Sequence record: LR746311
DNA length: 64,000 nt
DNA from: Shigella phage vB_SsoM_113
Direction: 5' to 3' (one strand)
Shown here: piece after piece, positions 33,978 through 49,651 of the stretch
Numbering within the stretch: position 1 is the stretch's first letter
Layout of the letters: each line of letters opens with the position of its first letter
Position numbers and translations under genes: made by a program
The notes under the pieces: generated by a model
Databases searched by the model: none
The model's input: the letters and a program-made list of their open reading frames with translations, nothing else
Told to the model about the DNA's origin: nothing

Positions 33978-35180
33978 ATGAAAGTATGCATTTTTATGGC
34001 TCGAGGTCTTGAAGGTTGTGGCGTAACTAAATTTTCTCTTGAGCAGCGTGATTGGTTTATTAAAAATGGTCATGAAGTAACTTTGGTTTATGCTAAAGAT
34101 AAATCATTTACCCGTAATTGCGCGCATGATTATAAATCATTTTCAATTCCGGTTTTATTGGCAAAAGAATACGATAAAACACTTAAGCTGGTAAATGATT
34201 GTGATATTCTAATTATCAATTCAGTTCCTGCTACTTCAGTAGAAGAAGACACTATTAATAACTATAAAAAAATTATTGATAACATTAAACCTTCGGTTCG
34301 TGTTGTAGTTTATCAACATGACCATTCTTCTCTTTCTTTGCGCCGAAATTTGGGATTAGAAGAAACTGTTCGTCGAGCTGATGTTATTTTTAGTCATTCT
34401 GATAATGGTGATTTTAATAAAGTTCTGATGAAAGAATGGTATCCAGAAACAGTTTCTCTGTTTGATGATATTGAAGAAGCACCGACTGTATACAACTTTC
34501 AGCCTCCTATGGATATTGCGAAGGTTCGATCAACCTACTGGAAAGATGTTTCTGAAATTAACATGAATGTCAACCGTTGGATTGGTCGTACGACTACATG
34601 GAAAGGTTTTTATCAGATGTTTGATTTTCACGAAAAACATCTTAAACCTGCAGGACTAAGTACTATTATGGAAGGTCTGGAACGTTCTCCAGCGTTCATT
34701 CCTATTAAAGAAAAAGGAATTCCATACGAGTATTATCGTCTTCATCAAGTAGACCAAATTAAAATTGCTCCTAATTTGCCGACGCAAATTCTCGACCGTT
34801 ATGTAAATAGCGAAATGCTTGAACGCATGAGTAAATCCGGATTTGGTTATCAGTTGAGTAAGTTGGACAAAAAATATCTACAACGTTCTTTAGAATATAC
34901 TCATCTCGAGCTTGGTGCATGTGGAACAATTCCAGTATTTTGGAAATCTACTGGCGAAAATTTAAAATTCCGTGTTGATAATACTCCGTTAATTTCTCAT
35001 GATAGCGGTATCGTTTGGTTTGATGAAAATGACATGGAATCAACATTTGAACGTATTAAAGAACTGTCATCTGACCGAGCTCTTTATGACCGTGAACGCG
35101 AAAAAGCTTATGAATTTTTGTATCAGCATCAAGATTCAAGCTTCTGCTTTAAAGAACAGTTTGACATTATTACAAAATAA
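33978..35180 (+). CDS. a-gt: DNA alpha-glucosyltransferase
   Basis: 400 aa; MKVCIFMARGLEGCGVTKFSLEQRDWFIKNGHEVTLVYAKDKSF matches recalled T4 alpha-gt. Confidence 0.92.
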   Translation: MKVCIFMARGLEGCGVTKFSLEQRDWFIKNGHEVTLVYAKDKSFTRNCAHDYKSFSIPVLLAKEYDKTLKLVNDCDILIINSVPATSVEEDTINNYKKIIDNIKPSVRVVVYQHDHSSLSLRRNLGLEETVRRADVIFSHSDNGDFNKVLMKEWYPETVSLFDDIEEAPTVYNFQPPMDIAKVRSTYWKDVSEINMNVNRWIGRTTTWKGFYQMFDFHEKHLKPAGLSTIMEGLERSPAFIPIKEKGIPYEYYRLHQVDQIKIAPNLPTQILDRYVNSEMLERMSKSGFGYQLSKLDKKYLQRSLEYTHLELGACGTIPVFWKSTGENLKFRVDNTPLISHDSGIVWFDENDMESTFERIKELSSDRALYDREREKAYEFLYQHQDSSFCFKEQFDIITK

Positions 35181-45775: not shown

Positions 45776-46027
45776 ATGGAAACTTTAGTAGCAGGTTCAA
45801 TTTTTATGGTTTTAGTTTCAGGCGTGTTGGCTATTATTATATACATGCTTCCGTGGTTCATCGCCTTGATGCGTGGGTCAAAATCGACAGTAGGAATCTT
45901 TTTCACGTCTTTACTGTTTAATTGGTCAATTATTGGTTGGTTTATTACATTTATTTGGTCAATTGCGGGTGAAACTAAAAAATCCGCACAACCAAATCAA
46001 GTAATTATCATCAGAGAGAAGGAATGA
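45776..46027 (+). CDS. imm: immunity to superinfection membrane protein
   Basis: 83 aa, two TM helices; position between 43 and 42 as T4 imm. Confidence 0.8.
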   Translation: METLVAGSIFMVLVSGVLAIIIYMLPWFIALMRGSKSTVGIFFTSLLFNWSIIGWFITFIWSIAGETKKSAQPNQVIIIREKE

Positions 46028-46173
46028 AAAGCAAAATTTTAGCAGTATTGCTTTTAATCTTGATGATTATAATAAGTATATACTATAGCGTAACGGTTCC
46101 TTGTATGATTCCGACACTTATTATAGGTTGGGGTTTATTACTGTTACAAGTTAAATATGAATGCATCAATTGA
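46024..46173 (+). CDS. small hydrophobic membrane peptide (49 aa)
   Basis: Hand-translated ORF overlapping imm stop. Confidence 0.35.
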   Translation: MKSKILAVLLLILMIIISIYYSVTVPCMIPTLIIGWGLLLLQVKYECIN

Positions 46174-46180
46174 GGTTTAA

Positions 46181-46921
46181 ATGATTAACGATTATATGAC
46201 AGTTGAAGAAATCCGTCTTGATTTGGGTCTTGCATTAAAGGAAAAAGATTTCGTAATTGATAAAACTGGTGTTAAAACTATTGAAATTATTGGTGCATCA
46301 TTTGTAGCAGATGAACCTTTTATTTTTGGCGCTCTTAATGATGAATACATTCAGCGTGAACTTGAATGGTATAAGTCTCAAAGTCTGTTTGTTAAAGATA
46401 TTCCAGGTGAAACACCGAAGATTTGGCAACAGGTAGCATCTTCTAAAGGCGAAATTAACTCAAATTATGGTTGGGCCATCTGGTCAGAAGATAACTATGC
46501 CCAGTATGATATGTGTTTAGCTGAACTTGGTCAAAATCCTGATTCTCGACGTGGTATCATGATTTATACTCGTCCATCTATGCAGTTTGACTACAATAAA
46601 GATGGTATGTCAGATTTCATGTGTACGAATACCGTACAGTATCTGATTCGTGACAAGAAAGTCAATGCAGTTGTTAATATGAGAAGCAATGACTGCTGGG
46701 CAGGCTATCGTAATGATTATGCATGGCAAAAATACGTACTAGATAAATTAGTATCTGATTTGAATGCAGGCGACCCATCGCGGCAATATAAAGCAGGTTC
46801 TATTATATGGAACGTTGGAAGTCTTCATGTGTACGAAAATCAGTTTTATTTAGTTGACCATTGGTGGAACACTGGTGAAACTCATATTGCTAAAAAGGAT
46901 TATACTGGAAAATGGAAGTAA
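46181..46921 (+). CDS. 42: dCMP hydroxymethylase
   Basis: 246 aa; thymidylate-synthase-like fold sequence matching recalled T4 gp42. Confidence 0.95.
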   Translation: MINDYMTVEEIRLDLGLALKEKDFVIDKTGVKTIEIIGASFVADEPFIFGALNDEYIQRELEWYKSQSLFVKDIPGETPKIWQQVASSKGEINSNYGWAIWSEDNYAQYDMCLAELGQNPDSRRGIMIYTRPSMQFDYNKDGMSDFMCTNTVQYLIRDKKVNAVVNMRSNDCWAGYRNDYAWQKYVLDKLVSDLNAGDPSRQYKAGSIIWNVGSLHVYENQFYLVDHWWNTGETHIAKKDYTGKWK

Positions 46922-47553
46922 ATGTGCCACATGTTTATAAGTATAAACATCCTAAAACTAAAAAGTGGTATATAGGAAGTCATGATGGTCACAACCCAAA
47001 TTATGATGGTTCGGGTGTAGTTTGGCAACATGCTAAAAAGAAATATGGAATAAAATCCTTTAATAAAGAAATATTATATGAAGGACCAATGTTTAGACAG
47101 GTTGAAGAAATTATTTTAACTTGTTTAGATGCTGCTAATTGTCCGGATTCATATAATTTAAAGAATGAAGCATGGGGAGGAAGTTTTCCAGGCAAATTAA
47201 ATGGAATGTACGGTAAAAAACTATCTCCAGAAGAAAGATATAAGTGCGGAAATGCCTTTCGTGGAATCAAGCGTCCTGATCATTCTAAAAGAATGAAAGG
47301 CGAAGGTAATCCAATGTATGGTAAAAATGAGCAGGCATATGGAATTATAAATCGAGCAAAGGAAAATTCTGGTAAAACTTATGAAGAAATTTTTGGCGCA
47401 GAAAAAGCTAAAATAATTAAAGAAACGATGTCTAAAAATCGTAAAGGAAAACCTCATAATTTGATAGAAAAAATATGTCCGCATTGCGGACTAAAAGGAC
47501 GTGGGCCAAATATGACAAGATACCATTTTGACAAATGTAAGGCACTTAAATGA
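46912..47553 (+). CDS. GIY-YIG homing endonuclease-like protein (seg-type)
   Basis: N-terminal HVYKYKHPKTKKWYIGSHDG...YDGSG GIY-YIG motif; NUMOD-like GKK repeats; C-terminal CPHCG zinc knuckle; between 42 and the glycosyltransferase. Confidence 0.7.
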   Translation: MEVNVPHVYKYKHPKTKKWYIGSHDGHNPNYDGSGVVWQHAKKKYGIKSFNKEILYEGPMFRQVEEIILTCLDAANCPDSYNLKNEAWGGSFPGKLNGMYGKKLSPEERYKCGNAFRGIKRPDHSKRMKGEGNPMYGKNEQAYGIINRAKENSGKTYEEIFGAEKAKIIKETMSKNRKGKPHNLIEKICPHCGLKGRGPNMTRYHFDKCKALK

Positions 47554-48392
47554 TTCAATTCGTAATTCCAAGCTATCAACGCGTAGGGGCAGTTTCTGCC
47601 CTTGATATGTTTCCATCTGATTATGAACCACATATTGTAGTACGTAAACATGAAGAAAAAGCTTATTATGATGCTTACGGGTCTAGAGCCAAAATTATAA
47701 CTATTCCTGATGATGTCAATGGAATTGCTGGTACTCGTAAAGCAATTACTGATATGTATGCAGGTCAACGAATTTGGATGATTGATGATGATACTACTAT
47801 TCGTATGAGTTCAATGCGAAAAAGAGATGATCGTCGCTGCGTAGATAAAATTAATCAGTTAACTCGTGAACAGTTCTATGAATTGATTCAATACGTCGAA
47901 GATGCCATGGATTGTGGGTATTATCACGGTCATGCTCGTCTACCTATTTTTAAAATTACTTCATCTTGGGGTAATTATCGTGAAAATTCATATGGATTCA
48001 CGAATACTTGGTATGACCTCGGGAAACTTACAACAGAACAAATTGGATATGGAAAAATTGATTTATGCGAAGATATGTATGCATTTCTCAATTTAATTAA
48101 TCAAGGTTATCCGCATTTGGCCTTGTTCAAATATCTGGTTGTATCTGGAAAAGCGCAAGCTCCAGGCGGATGTAGTTCAATTCGTAGTAATTCAAAACAT
48201 AATAGAGCTCTTGAGCAAATCAATAGAGAGTTTCCAGAGCAAGCTCGTTGGAAAACATCGAATATTGAAAAGAGAAAATCGTTGGGTGAAGAAGACGAGC
48301 CATTAAAGGTTCTTCGCATGTGTGTTTCGCGCAAAGAAAAATCAGAAGCGTTTCATAAGTTTAATGCTATTCATCCAATAGCAGTTGATTAA
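47550..48392 (+). CDS. glycosyltransferase, not T4 beta-gt-like (280 aa)
   Basis: N-terminal VIPSYQR and WMIDDD (DxD) motifs typical of GT-A glycosyltransferases; occupies the beta-gt locus. Confidence 0.65.
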   Translation: MIQFVIPSYQRVGAVSALDMFPSDYEPHIVVRKHEEKAYYDAYGSRAKIITIPDDVNGIAGTRKAITDMYAGQRIWMIDDDTTIRMSSMRKRDDRRCVDKINQLTREQFYELIQYVEDAMDCGYYHGHARLPIFKITSSWGNYRENSYGFTNTWYDLGKLTTEQIGYGKIDLCEDMYAFLNLINQGYPHLALFKYLVVSGKAQAPGGCSSIRSNSKHNRALEQINREFPEQARWKTSNIEKRKSLGEEDEPLKVLRMCVSRKEKSEAFHKFNAIHPIAVD

Positions 48393-48469
48393 TGCCTAAA
48401 TTTATTGTGTTATAATTACTTTATCTTTAACCAGTGAGGAAAATATAATGATGCCTATGGAAAAAATGA

Positions 48470-49651
48470 ATGTCTATTGCAGATTTAAAATCCCGTTTGA
48501 TTAAAGCTTCCACTTCTAAAATGACTGCTGAACTGACTACATCTAAATTCTTTAATGAAAAGGATGTAATCCGTACAAAAATCCCAATGCTTAATATCGC
48601 TATTTCTGGTGCAATTGATGGTGGTATGCAGTCTGGTTTAACCATTTTTGCAGGTCCTTCTAAACACTTTAAATCAAATATGTCTTTGACTATGGTTGCG
48701 GCGTATTTGAACAAATATCCTGACGCGGTATGTCTATTCTATGATAGCGAATTTGGTATTACTCCAGCTTATTTGCGATCCATGGGAGTTGACCCGGAAC
48801 GAGTAATTCATACACCAATTCAGTCAGTTGAACAGCTGAAAATTGATATGGTGAATCAGCTTGAAGCTATTGAGCGTGGTGAAAAAGTTATTGTATTCAT
48901 CGACTCAATTGGTAATATGGCTTCTAAGAAAGAAACGGAAGATGCCTTGAATGAAAAATCTGTGGCAGATATGACTCGTGCTAAATCACTGAAGTCATTA
49001 TTCCGTATTGTTACTCCTTATTTTAGTATTAAAAACATTCCGTGTGTTGCGGTTAACCATACAATTGAAACAATTGAAATGTTTAGTAAAACCGTGATGA
49101 CAGGTGGTACAGGCGTAATGTATTCGGCTGATACTGTGTTCATTATCGGTAAGCGCCAGATTAAAGATGGTTCTGATCTTCAGGGGTATCAATTTGTTCT
49201 AAATGTAGAAAAATCTCGTACCGTTAAAGAAAAAAGTAAATTCTTTATTGATGTTAAATTTGACGGTGGCATCGATCCTTATTCTGGATTGTTAGATATG
49301 GCTCTTGAATTAGGATTTGTGGTAAAACCTAAAAATGGCTGGTATGCTCGTGAATTTCTTGACGAAGAAACCGGTGAGATGATTCGCGAAGAAAAATCTT
49401 GGCGTGCAAAAGATACCAATTGCACTACATTCTGGGGTCCTTTATTTAAGCATCAGCCATTCCGAGATGCTATTAAACGCGCTTATCAGTTAGGTGCTAT
49501 TGATAGTAATGAAATTGTTGAAGCTGAAGTTGATGAATTGATTAACTCAAAGGTTGAAAAATTTAAATCTCCAGAAAGTAAAAGTAAATCAGCAGCTGAT
49601 TTAGAAACTGACCTAGATCAGTTAAGTGATATGGAAGAATTTAATGAATAA
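48470..49651 (+). CDS. uvsX: recombinase UvsX (RecA-like)
   Basis: 393 aa; Walker A GPSKHFKS; DLKSRLIKASTSK N-terminus matches recalled T4 UvsX. Confidence 0.95.
   Translation: MSIADLKSRLIKASTSKMTAELTTSKFFNEKDVIRTKIPMLNIAISGAIDGGMQSGLTIFAGPSKHFKSNMSLTMVAAYLNKYPDAVCLFYDSEFGITPAYLRSMGVDPERVIHTPIQSVEQLKIDMVNQLEAIERGEKVIVFIDSIGNMASKKETEDALNEKSVADMTRAKSLKSLFRIVTPYFSIKNIPCVAVNHTIETIEMFSKTVMTGGTGVMYSADTVFIIGKRQIKDGSDLQGYQFVLNVEKSRTVKEKSKFFIDVKFDGGIDPYSGLLDMALELGFVVKPKNGWYAREFLDEETGEMIREEKSWRAKDTNCTTFWGPLFKHQPFRDAIKRAYQLGAIDSNEIVEAEVDELINSKVEKFKSPESKSKSAADLETDLDQLSDMEEFNE

Follow-up and report, generated by a model that had tools for sequence, protein, structure and literature searches.

A T2/T6-type glucosyltransferase gene and a putative homing endonuclease gene in the 42-uvsX interval of Shigella phage vB_SsoM_113

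In phages T2 and T6, the product of gene 42, dCMP hydroxymethylase, is the source of the hmC precursor. This enzyme (gp42) supplies hmdCMP, after which the alpha-glucosyltransferase (alpha-gt) adds an alpha-glucose to hmC in DNA, and the beta-glucosyl-HMC-alpha-glucosyltransferase (ba-gt) attaches a further, beta-1,6-linked glucose taken from UDP-glucose, yielding gentiobiosyl-hmC. In T4, the order of genes in the corresponding interval is 42, b-gt, segA and uvsX. The T2/T6 enzyme, also known as TAGT (PF20691), has a GT-A fold and makes gentiobiosyl-hmC from alpha-glucosyl-hmC (PMC13216743). Meanwhile, the free-standing endonucleases of T4 cut the gene beside their own insertion site (PMC2988022), a pattern that the locus described here matches.

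We analysed a stretch of 64,000 nucleotides (the window) from Shigella phage vB_SsoM_113 (LR746311), which is a T2/T6-type Tequatrovirus. The genes that concern us are the following.

46181-46921, + strand: gene 42, dCMP hydroxymethylase (Pfam Thymidylat_synt, E 9e-15; about 90% nucleotide identity to gene 42 of T4, T2 and T6)
46912-47553, + strand: predicted free-standing Seg-type GIY-YIG homing endonuclease gene (seg), 213 aa (PHROG 314, E 1.8e-31; SegA, E 5e-9)
47550-48392, + strand: predicted ba-gt/TAGT, 280 aa, GT-A fold (T2/T6 identity, PHROG 842, Pfam PF20691, AlphaFold model)
48470-49651: uvsX, the right-hand flank of the interval
33978-35180, + strand: alpha-glucosyltransferase (alpha-gt; Pfam AGT PF11440, E 5e-236)

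Both ORFs that an earlier note had placed between gene 42 and uvsX are present, at 46912-47553 and 47550-48392 on the + strand. Its description of a beta-gt locus taken over by another transferase and a GIY-YIG gene stands as far as the presence of the two genes goes; the T4 interval also holds segA beside beta-gt, so a GIY-YIG gene in the 42-uvsX interval is not novel per se. The seg gene of the window is, nevertheless, a different gene from T4 segA and lies on the opposite side of the transferase. It is tightly packed: the first 10 nt are shared with the end of gene 42, and the stop overlaps the ATG of ba-gt (ATGA). A promoter and terminator scan of 45900-48600 found 13 promoter-like sites against 12.3 in shuffled sequence, which is no excess. 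The arrangement is very common among phages and already annotated; the earlier note had missed this, along with the segA of the T4 interval.

The 280-aa ORF was identical to the T2 enzyme at 275 of 280 positions (98%) and shared 97.5% identity with that of T6. It also matched PHROG 842, annotated as beta-glucosyl-HMC-alpha-glucosyltransferase (E 2.5e-88), and the Pfam TAGT family PF20691 (37.8 bits, gathering cut-off 27.5). Formal alignment revealed no similarity to T4 beta-gt, the best BLASTP segment having an E of 3.4, and the Pfam search gave no match to PF09198, the T4 beta-gt family. A PDB sequence search with the transferase also returned no match. By homology, the 280-aa ORF is the known T2/T6 ba-gt, as had been proposed from the letters alone together with its unlikeness to T4 beta-gt. 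This identity is textbook biology and already known, and we regard it as routine annotation rather than discovery. This transferase, at 90% identity or higher, occurs in about 470 phage records. Since an IMG/VR scan with the transferase yielded five loci only, GenBank phage records were used as the comparison set.

The two motifs quoted in support of a GT-A-type enzyme, VIPSYQR and DDD, were found at residues 5-11 and 79-81, and their cores are conserved as follows.

47568-47582, + strand: PSYQR motif of ba-gt, residues 7-11 (no variation at P7, S8, Y9 and R11 among 11 homologues)
47784-47792, + strand: DxD-type motif of ba-gt, DDD at residues 79-81 (invariant in 11 homologues; at the end of model strand E74-78)

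The AlphaFold model of the enzyme (pLDDT 78, pTM 0.81) retrieved, as top PDB entries in a fold search, the GT2-type GT-A enzymes WrtF, K4CP, TarP and TarS, with E from 1e-6 to 1e-4 and TM of about 0.45-0.5. Model and fold search thus agree with the GT-A call, as does the published description of the family (PMC13216743).

In the infected cell, the alpha-gt of the window (33978-35180) would make the alpha-glucosyl-hmC acceptor, to which ba-gt would add the second glucose to give gentiobiosyl-hmC. Judging from sequence, the DNA of this phage should therefore carry gentiobiosyl-hmC, like that of T6, and be free of beta-glucosyl-hmC. The enzyme might instead use another sugar or acceptor than its T2/T6 counterparts, with a different DNA modification as the result, as TAGT-family enzymes are diverse, the 1-2% sequence differences from T2/T6 may affect activity, and NCBIfam holds no model that gives the 280-aa protein a name. 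We consider this very improbable, given the near identity to T2 and T6, the intact invariant residues and the alpha-gt available in the window to make the acceptor. Indirect chemical evidence comes from phage vB_Eco_CP, whose DNA contained about two thirds alpha-5-gentiobiosylmethyl-dC by HPLC/MS (PMC13390438) and whose enzyme, at the same locus, is 98.6% identical to the one in the window. The prediction of gentiobiosyl-hmC in turn sets the expected behaviour of the phage towards defences that depend on DNA modification, among them GmrSD/BrxU-type enzymes and alpha-glucosyl-hmC glycosylases.

The 213-aa ORF shared 32% identity with T4 SegA (E 5e-9) and could be divided into three parts.

46930-47196, + strand: GIY-YIG catalytic domain, approximately residues 7-95 (I-TevI profile match, model fold)
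47197-47475, + strand: linker with NUMOD3-like helical repeats, presumed to bind DNA (Pfam NUMOD3, 18.1 bits, cut-off 20.4)
47476-47538, + strand: C-terminal CCHC zinc-finger-like module with C189, C192, H205 and C209 (invariant in 31 family members)

Family profiles recognised the single protein poorly. Pfam GIY-YIG (PF01541) gave no match to it even at E 10, TIGR01453 scored 25 bits against a cut-off of 56 bits, and a PDB sequence search with it returned no useful match. Among its homologues, some carry precomputed matches to PF01541 or PF19835, and that of Yersinia phage MHG19 passes the 20.4-bit NUMOD3 cut-off with 21.7 bits. The I-TevI catalytic domain (1LN0) was reached by the family profile only (E 0.0057), over its whole length. 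The GIY/YIG-type motifs correspond to VYKY at residues 8-11 (V8-Y9-K10) and YIG at 20-22 (Y20-I21-G22). In an alignment of 31 homologues Y20 and G22 are invariant, Y9 is conserved in at least 90%, and the near-invariant E65 and N82 align in the profile with the Glu and Asn of I-TevI (E75, N90). No Arg of the catalytic domain is invariant in this alignment, and a counterpart of I-TevI R27, the Arg that follows YIG, is not evident; the YxGSG motif and K44 take up that region. The structural model (pLDDT 87) had 1MK0/1LN0, the I-TevI catalytic domain, as its top PDB match (probability 1.00), with a target-normalised TM of 0.67 and an rmsd of 2.8 A over the full 97-residue domain. From homology and model, we assign the ORF to the free-standing GIY-YIG endonuclease genes of Seg type, and the earlier reading of it as seg-like is upheld by the SegA homology and by the I-TevI profile match and fold. 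We also considered whether it is the orthologue of T4 segA shifted across the transferase. This was rejected, the two proteins being only 32% identical and different at the C-terminus; moreover, each of the two can be found beside ba-gt; in PD112, for instance, segA follows it.

The seg gene was found at exactly this site in 77 phage records, with 95-100% identity, and was not found in the corresponding interval of T2, T6 or T4. It amounts to an exact insertion of 632 bp at the border of gene 42 and ba-gt, and the ATGA stop/start overlap with ba-gt is kept. While copies of seg are 99-100% identical, the adjoining genes diverge by 4-6% and seg status is not reflected in the grouping of ba-gt alleles, which speaks for horizontal spread in recent times. 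Compared across genomes, it shows the marks of a homing gene, namely presence or absence at one precise site and far lower divergence than its flanks. It appears to be an uncharacterised but ordinary-looking selfish endonuclease gene, and our literature searches found no paper on an endonuclease gene at this place, after gene 42 and before the transferase. Beyond these phages, we examined four metagenomic homologues, at 44-65% identity; each comes immediately 3' of a gene of the Thymidylat_synt family, although the surroundings otherwise differ, and the gene downstream of seg homologues varies, being a T4-type beta-gt in MHG19, IMPDH in the distant locus L029 and a helicase in L030.

The presence of decayed copies, some frameshifted or truncated (phages Roth67, GF and Shinka), fits a mobile gene and also raises the question of whether seg is an inactive or domesticated remnant. 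The tail of gene 42 that accompanies it, described below, would then go back to a single ancient recombination event involving a distant phage and would since have been passed on vertically. The missing Pfam GIY-YIG match and the lack of an obvious catalytic Arg fit such a reading, and defunct endonuclease genes are known from T4 itself (PMC2790892). We hold it to be quite unlikely, since the ORF in the window is intact and 71 of the 77 records have copies at least 99% identical despite the divergence of the flanks. In addition, conservation of the catalytic Tyr/Tyr/Gly/Glu/Asn and of the zinc-finger ligands extends through the 31 homologues, down to about 32% identity, and the family stays 3' of TS-family genes across unrelated contexts.

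The clue to the target of a presumably active enzyme came from gene 42, which we compared between 8 loci with seg and 13 without it, drawn from roughly 540 records.

46682-46911, + strand: 3' part of gene 42 co-inherited with seg, a putative co-conversion tract (divergence; 38 fixed differences)
46682-46708, + strand: recoded patch, gene 42 codons 168-176, RSND-CWAGY versus RSND-VVFGF (candidate recognition/cleavage site in seg-less alleles)
46834-46843, + strand: second recoded patch of gene 42, YENQ versus YSRH (alternative candidate target, weaker, as seg+ locus L031 keeps SRH)

Between the two groups, this tract diverges by 17-24% and other parts by 2-7%, while seg+ loci differ from one another in the tract by about 1%. 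The divergence linked to seg does not extend beyond 46682-46911 and on the right breaks off abruptly at the seg stop. The first patch has fixed differences at 17 of its 27 nt, a clustering reached in none of 100,000 permutations. The CWAG allele also accompanies seg in Klebsiella phage Mexia, in MHG19 and in metagenomic locus L031, and the seg-less Klebsiella phage K65evo3 keeps VVFGY. Meanwhile, CWAG is not present in the more distant seg+ loci L029 and L030. Because of these two loci, and of the SRH in L031, we leave the exact target within gene 42 at the level of candidates. The divergent tail could be hitch-hiking donor sequence instead of an immunity polymorphism. A direct origin of the tail from Klebsiella or Yersinia phages was rejected because of the 65 nt at 46709-46773, which lie within the tract, hold no fixed difference between seg+ and seg- loci, and correspond to a protein stretch that differs in Klebsiella phages.

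An active endonuclease could also have its target outside gene 42, the candidates being the 5' end of ba-gt, the junction of 42 with ba-gt, and the transferase gene downstream. The insertion splits the ATGA junction of gene 42 and ba-gt, which alone would be enough to protect seg+ genomes, and the cleavage site proposed in gene 42 comes from sequence comparison. Yet no seg-linked divergence exists to the right of the seg stop, and the homologues adjoin TS-family genes whatever lies downstream of them (beta-gt, IMPDH or helicase). In the seg-less recombinants BYEP01 and PD112, likewise, the seg-type tract reaches to about 46865 and no further downstream. Hence, we rate a target outside gene 42 as unlikely.

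Homing of seg through cleavage of seg-less gene 42 is, from these comparisons, the likely process. During mixed infection, the endonuclease would cut both strands of a seg-less gene 42 in its 3' part, most likely in the segment coding for RSNDVVFGF, about 205-230 bp upstream of the seg start codon. Repair by recombination with the seg+ genome would then copy seg together with the resistant gene 42 tail, that is, the CWAGY allele. We are highly confident in the explanation as a whole, in which the 280-aa ORF is ba-gt and seg would home by way of seg-less gene 42. More tentatively, and with a chance that we put somewhat short of even, seg may be the first recognised member of a Seg lineage specialised on thymidylate-synthase-fold genes. 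Such an enzyme would cut the DNA that encodes residues 168-176 of dCMP hydroxymethylase, the active-site segment immediately preceding Asp179, and spread along with a resistant allele in which three to four residues are altered there (VVFGF to CWAGY). If so, several genera of T4-like phages would have an essential nucleotide-modification enzyme whose catalytic core undergoes amino-acid replacement driven by a selfish endonuclease. The seg gene adds an uncharacterised member, with a predicted target in gene 42, to the free-standing endonucleases of T-even phages, and gives the 42-uvsX interval two alternative endonuclease insertion sites that flank the DNA-sugar transferase.

The transferase is closest to the ba-gt (also ggt) of T2 and T6, with which it shares length, position between gene 42 and uvsX, an alpha-gt partner, invariant motifs and GT-A fold; five or six substitutions set it apart. 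R11 and the complete DDD are intact in it, which is not so in the T2 and T6 stocks that were sequenced, and it is preceded by a seg gene, which theirs is not. T4 beta-gt (PF09198) occupies the same map position and has the same general role, the glucosylation of hmC in DNA; however, it is a GT-B enzyme as opposed to GT-A (PMC13216743), it has no detectable sequence similarity, and its acceptor is hmC rather than alpha-glucosyl-hmC.

As for the endonuclease, T4 SegA belongs to the same family, has a GIY-YIG domain followed by NUMOD3-type repeats and resides in the same interval (PMC2988022). SegA, which lacks the C-terminal CCHC zinc finger, is encoded between beta-gt and uvsX and targets uvsX, whereas the seg gene of the window precedes the transferase and probably targets gene 42. 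Its overlap with the upstream gene, about 10 nt with no promoter signal above chance, resembles that of T4 SegF, whose gene overlaps the upstream ORF by 11 bp (PMC2988022). SegF and SegG carry out "intronless homing" with localised marker exclusion. They likewise cut in a neighbouring conserved gene, as we infer here, and a divergent, presumably resistant target allele is co-inherited with the endonuclease gene, as in the window. Cleavage and biased inheritance have been demonstrated for SegF and SegG, whereas for seg they are deduced from comparative sequence data. Finally, I-TevI, from the td intron of T4, shares the catalytic fold, the motifs and the modular plan of catalytic domain, linker and zinc element, with about 19% identity over the catalytic domain. 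Both enzymes are tied to a thymidylate-synthase-fold gene, I-TevI being intron-encoded within its gene and seg standing free after it.

Gene 42, which encodes the dCMP hydroxymethylase gp42, is followed by three further ORFs in a close array, all on the + strand. The features relevant here are:

46181-46921, + strand: gene 42, 246 aa, Thymidylat_synt fold (Pfam)
46912-47553, + strand: seg gene, 213-aa ORF
47550-48392, + strand: ba-gt, 280-aa ORF
48470-49651, + strand: uvsX
33978-35180: acceptor-forming alpha-gt (PF11440, E 5e-236)

The VIPSYQR and DDD motifs claimed for the 280-aa ORF in the earlier note were both found, and residues P7, S8, Y9, R11 and D79-D81 were invariant in an alignment of 11 homologues. 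Its assignments to phrog_842 "beta-glucosyl-HMC-alpha-glucosyltransferase" (E 2.5e-88, PHROGs) and to the Pfam family TAGT (PF20691, score above the gathering threshold), along with 275 of 280 residues identical to T2 in direct comparison, bear out the proposal that this is the T2/T6 beta-glucosyl-HMC-alpha-glucosyltransferase. No similarity was detected between T4 beta-gt and this protein (best segment, E 3.4), as had been claimed. Searching 50,697 phage records by tblastn yielded 688 matching records, 472 of them with at least 90% identity, T2 (98.2%) and T6 (97.5%) among them. The GT-A-type fold was likewise supported: an AlphaFold model from the family alignment (pLDDT 78, pTM 0.81) matched the GT2-type GT-A enzymes WrtF, K4CP, TarP and TarS in the PDB. 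This is in line with PMC13216743, which assigns T6 TAGT, described there as glucosylating alpha-glucosyl-hmC, to GT-A and both T4 alpha-gt and T4 beta-gt to GT-B. Nucleosides have been measured in ten Tequatroviruses with alpha-GT and TAGT at the beta-gt position, and alpha-5-gentiobiosylmethyl-dC was found (PMC13390438); one of the ten, vB_Eco_CP, encodes at the same locus an enzyme 98.6% identical to that of the window. Collectively, homology, fold, the alpha-gt gene and these nucleosides identify the 280-aa ORF as the ba-gt of T2/T6, as the earlier note had proposed. This reading is established biology.

The ba-gt genes of all three sequenced T2/T6 stocks are altered at an otherwise invariant position. 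In T6 MH550421 (L001:2001-2843), codon 10 is a TAG stop and the annotated gene accordingly begins at an internal Met; T6 AP018814 (L032:902-1741) displays a 3-nt deletion that reduces DDD to DD; and T2 AP018813 (L002:2001-2843) displays R11H and P251S. The window copy is free of all these changes, which could have arisen as lesions in laboratory stocks or as errors of sequencing. The gentiobiosyl content of T2 is low, about 5%, and the change in its ba-gt might be related to this. The sequence TAGGGGCAG-TTT-CTGCCCTTG within codons 12-19 of ba-gt (47584-47604) is a GC-rich hairpin of 9 bp, with a run rich in T after it. The hairpin is kept in T2 and T6, the annotation of Yersinia phage fPS-2 lists it as a terminator, and it may act in attenuation or regulation of ba-gt expression. 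Both kinds of transferase occur together in a metagenomic T4-like phage (L031:2270-5536, Logan SRR30563987 contig), in which gene 42 is followed, in this order, by seg, a TAGT homologue (63% identity to the window ba-gt), an adjoining T4-type beta-gt (PF09198) and uvsX.

The 213-aa ORF is identified as a Seg-type GIY-YIG endonuclease gene. Its protein matches PHROG 314 "homing endonuclease" (E 1.8e-31), T4 SegA (32% identity, E 5e-9) and T4 SegC (35%); the match to TIGR01453 fell below threshold, and Pfam GIY-YIG gave no direct match to the window protein. We identified 69 relatives among 5.8 billion proteins searched. In an alignment of 31 of these, Y20 and G22 of the YIG motif were invariant, as were C189, C192, H205 and C209 of a CCHC zinc-finger-like module, and Y9 (the GIY-type Tyr), E65 and N82 were conserved in at least 90%. 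The best PDB match of the family profile was the whole I-TevI catalytic domain (E 0.0057), and the top structural matches of the model (pLDDT 87) were I-TevI 1MK0/1LN0 (prob 1.00, rmsd 2.8 A); no counterpart of I-TevI Arg27 was evident. The SegA homology and the I-TevI profile and fold matches uphold the suggestion of a GIY-YIG seg-like gene. GenBank lists it as hypothetical, "putative homing endonuclease" or "putative GIY-YIG homing endonuclease", our literature search found no paper on it, and it is best viewed as an uncharacterised addition to a well-known endonuclease class. The original observation was real and its interpretation correct: beside a known and very common transferase stands an uncharacterised endonuclease gene of a well-known kind.

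The start of the seg ORF overlaps the 3' end of gene 42 over 10 nt, and its TGA overlaps the ba-gt ATG (ATGA). It is the sole endonuclease insertion between gene 42 and uvsX in the window and lies upstream of the transferase, ba-gt and uvsX being separated by 77 nt. In T4, where the order is 42, beta-gt, segA, uvsX, the interval also holds a GIY-YIG gene, but a different one and on the opposite side of the transferase; none of the 15 homing endonuclease genes of T4 lies between gene 42 and beta-gt, and uvsX is the SegA cleavage target (PMC2988022). Escherichia phage PD112 (L034:1856-2033), of the ba-gt type, carries between ba-gt and uvsX a segA whose N-terminus is nearly identical to T4 SegA, indicating that the 42-uvsX interval has two alternative endonuclease insertion sites, one on either side of the transferase.

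In T2, T6, RB10, HY01 and others, gene 42 overlaps ba-gt directly. Seg DNA occurs at exactly this site in 77 phage records (71 at 99% identity or more), as a 632-bp insertion with the junction AAATGATTCAATTC kept. We aligned 8 loci with the gene (seg+) and 13 without it (seg-). Seg copies were 99-100% identical, and gene 42 and ba-gt diverged by 2-7% within and between groups. The exception was 46682-46911, where seg+ and seg- alleles differed by 17-24% and were near-uniform inside each group; right of the seg stop codon, no seg-linked divergence was found among these 21 loci. The 38 fixed differences were strongly clustered, 17 of them within 27 nt (46682-46708; reached in 0/100,000 permutations), and 46834-46843 forms a second cluster. 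In the first, gp42 residues 168-176 are recoded from RSND-VVFGF to RSND-CWAGY, with Ser changing from TCA to AGC; in T4 dCMP hydroxymethylase this segment lies just N-terminal of Asp179, the cytosine-specifying residue. Within the tract, 46709-46773 forms a 65-nt gap lacking fixed differences (such a gap arose in 2/100,000 permutations), so the tract is a mosaic and not a single uniformly diverged foreign segment. In BYEP01 and PD112, which lack seg, the tract is of the seg type between 46682 and about 46865 and of the ordinary type beyond; consistent with such carriers, the seg-type tail occurs in 84-86 records and the gene in 77. Judging from these alignments, the seg gene appears to be mobile, or to have been so recently.

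The association with gene 42 extends to other phages. Seg lies directly 3' of a CWAG-type gene 42 in Klebsiella phage Mexia (70% identical), Yersinia phage MHG19 (L023:1992-3737; 65%) and the metagenomic locus L031 (65%), and Klebsiella phage K65evo3, without seg, has VVFGY. The gene downstream of seg in MHG19 is a T4-type beta-gt and not ba-gt, so seg tracks gene 42 independently of the transferase type. A Thymidylat_synt-family gene lies directly 5' of the seg homologue in all four metagenomic loci examined (44-65% identity), and the remaining context varies: L029 has IMPDH, thymidine kinase and dCMP deaminase genes, and L030 has a helicase gene. CWAG is absent from more distant seg+ loci, and the second patch (YSRH/YENQ) is still SRH in L031. 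Decayed copies also occur: Klebsiella phage Roth67 (L025:1475-2029) retains only the part of the gene beyond the GIY/YIG motifs, its N-terminal catalytic motifs being gone, and the Shinka copy is frameshifted. In Klebsiella phage vB_KpnM_GF (L024:1364-2100), a partial genome record in which assembly error is possible, a deletion has taken out the last ~30 gene 42 codons and most of seg, joining what is left of gene 42 to the C-terminal end of seg; the hydroxymethylase would thereby be truncated.

Based on these findings, we postulate that the endonuclease would cut seg-less gene 42 somewhere in the final 240 bp, the patch coding for VVFGF or its close surroundings being the likeliest place, and that repair would then copy the seg gene together with a resistant gene 42 tail. 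The promoter scan gave no signal above chance at the seg locus, which, with the overlap with gene 42, fits the "promoter-less cassette" class (PMC2988022). The proposed scheme would follow the same pattern as T4 SegF, SegG, SegE and MobE, each of which cuts a gene adjoining its own (PMC2988022).
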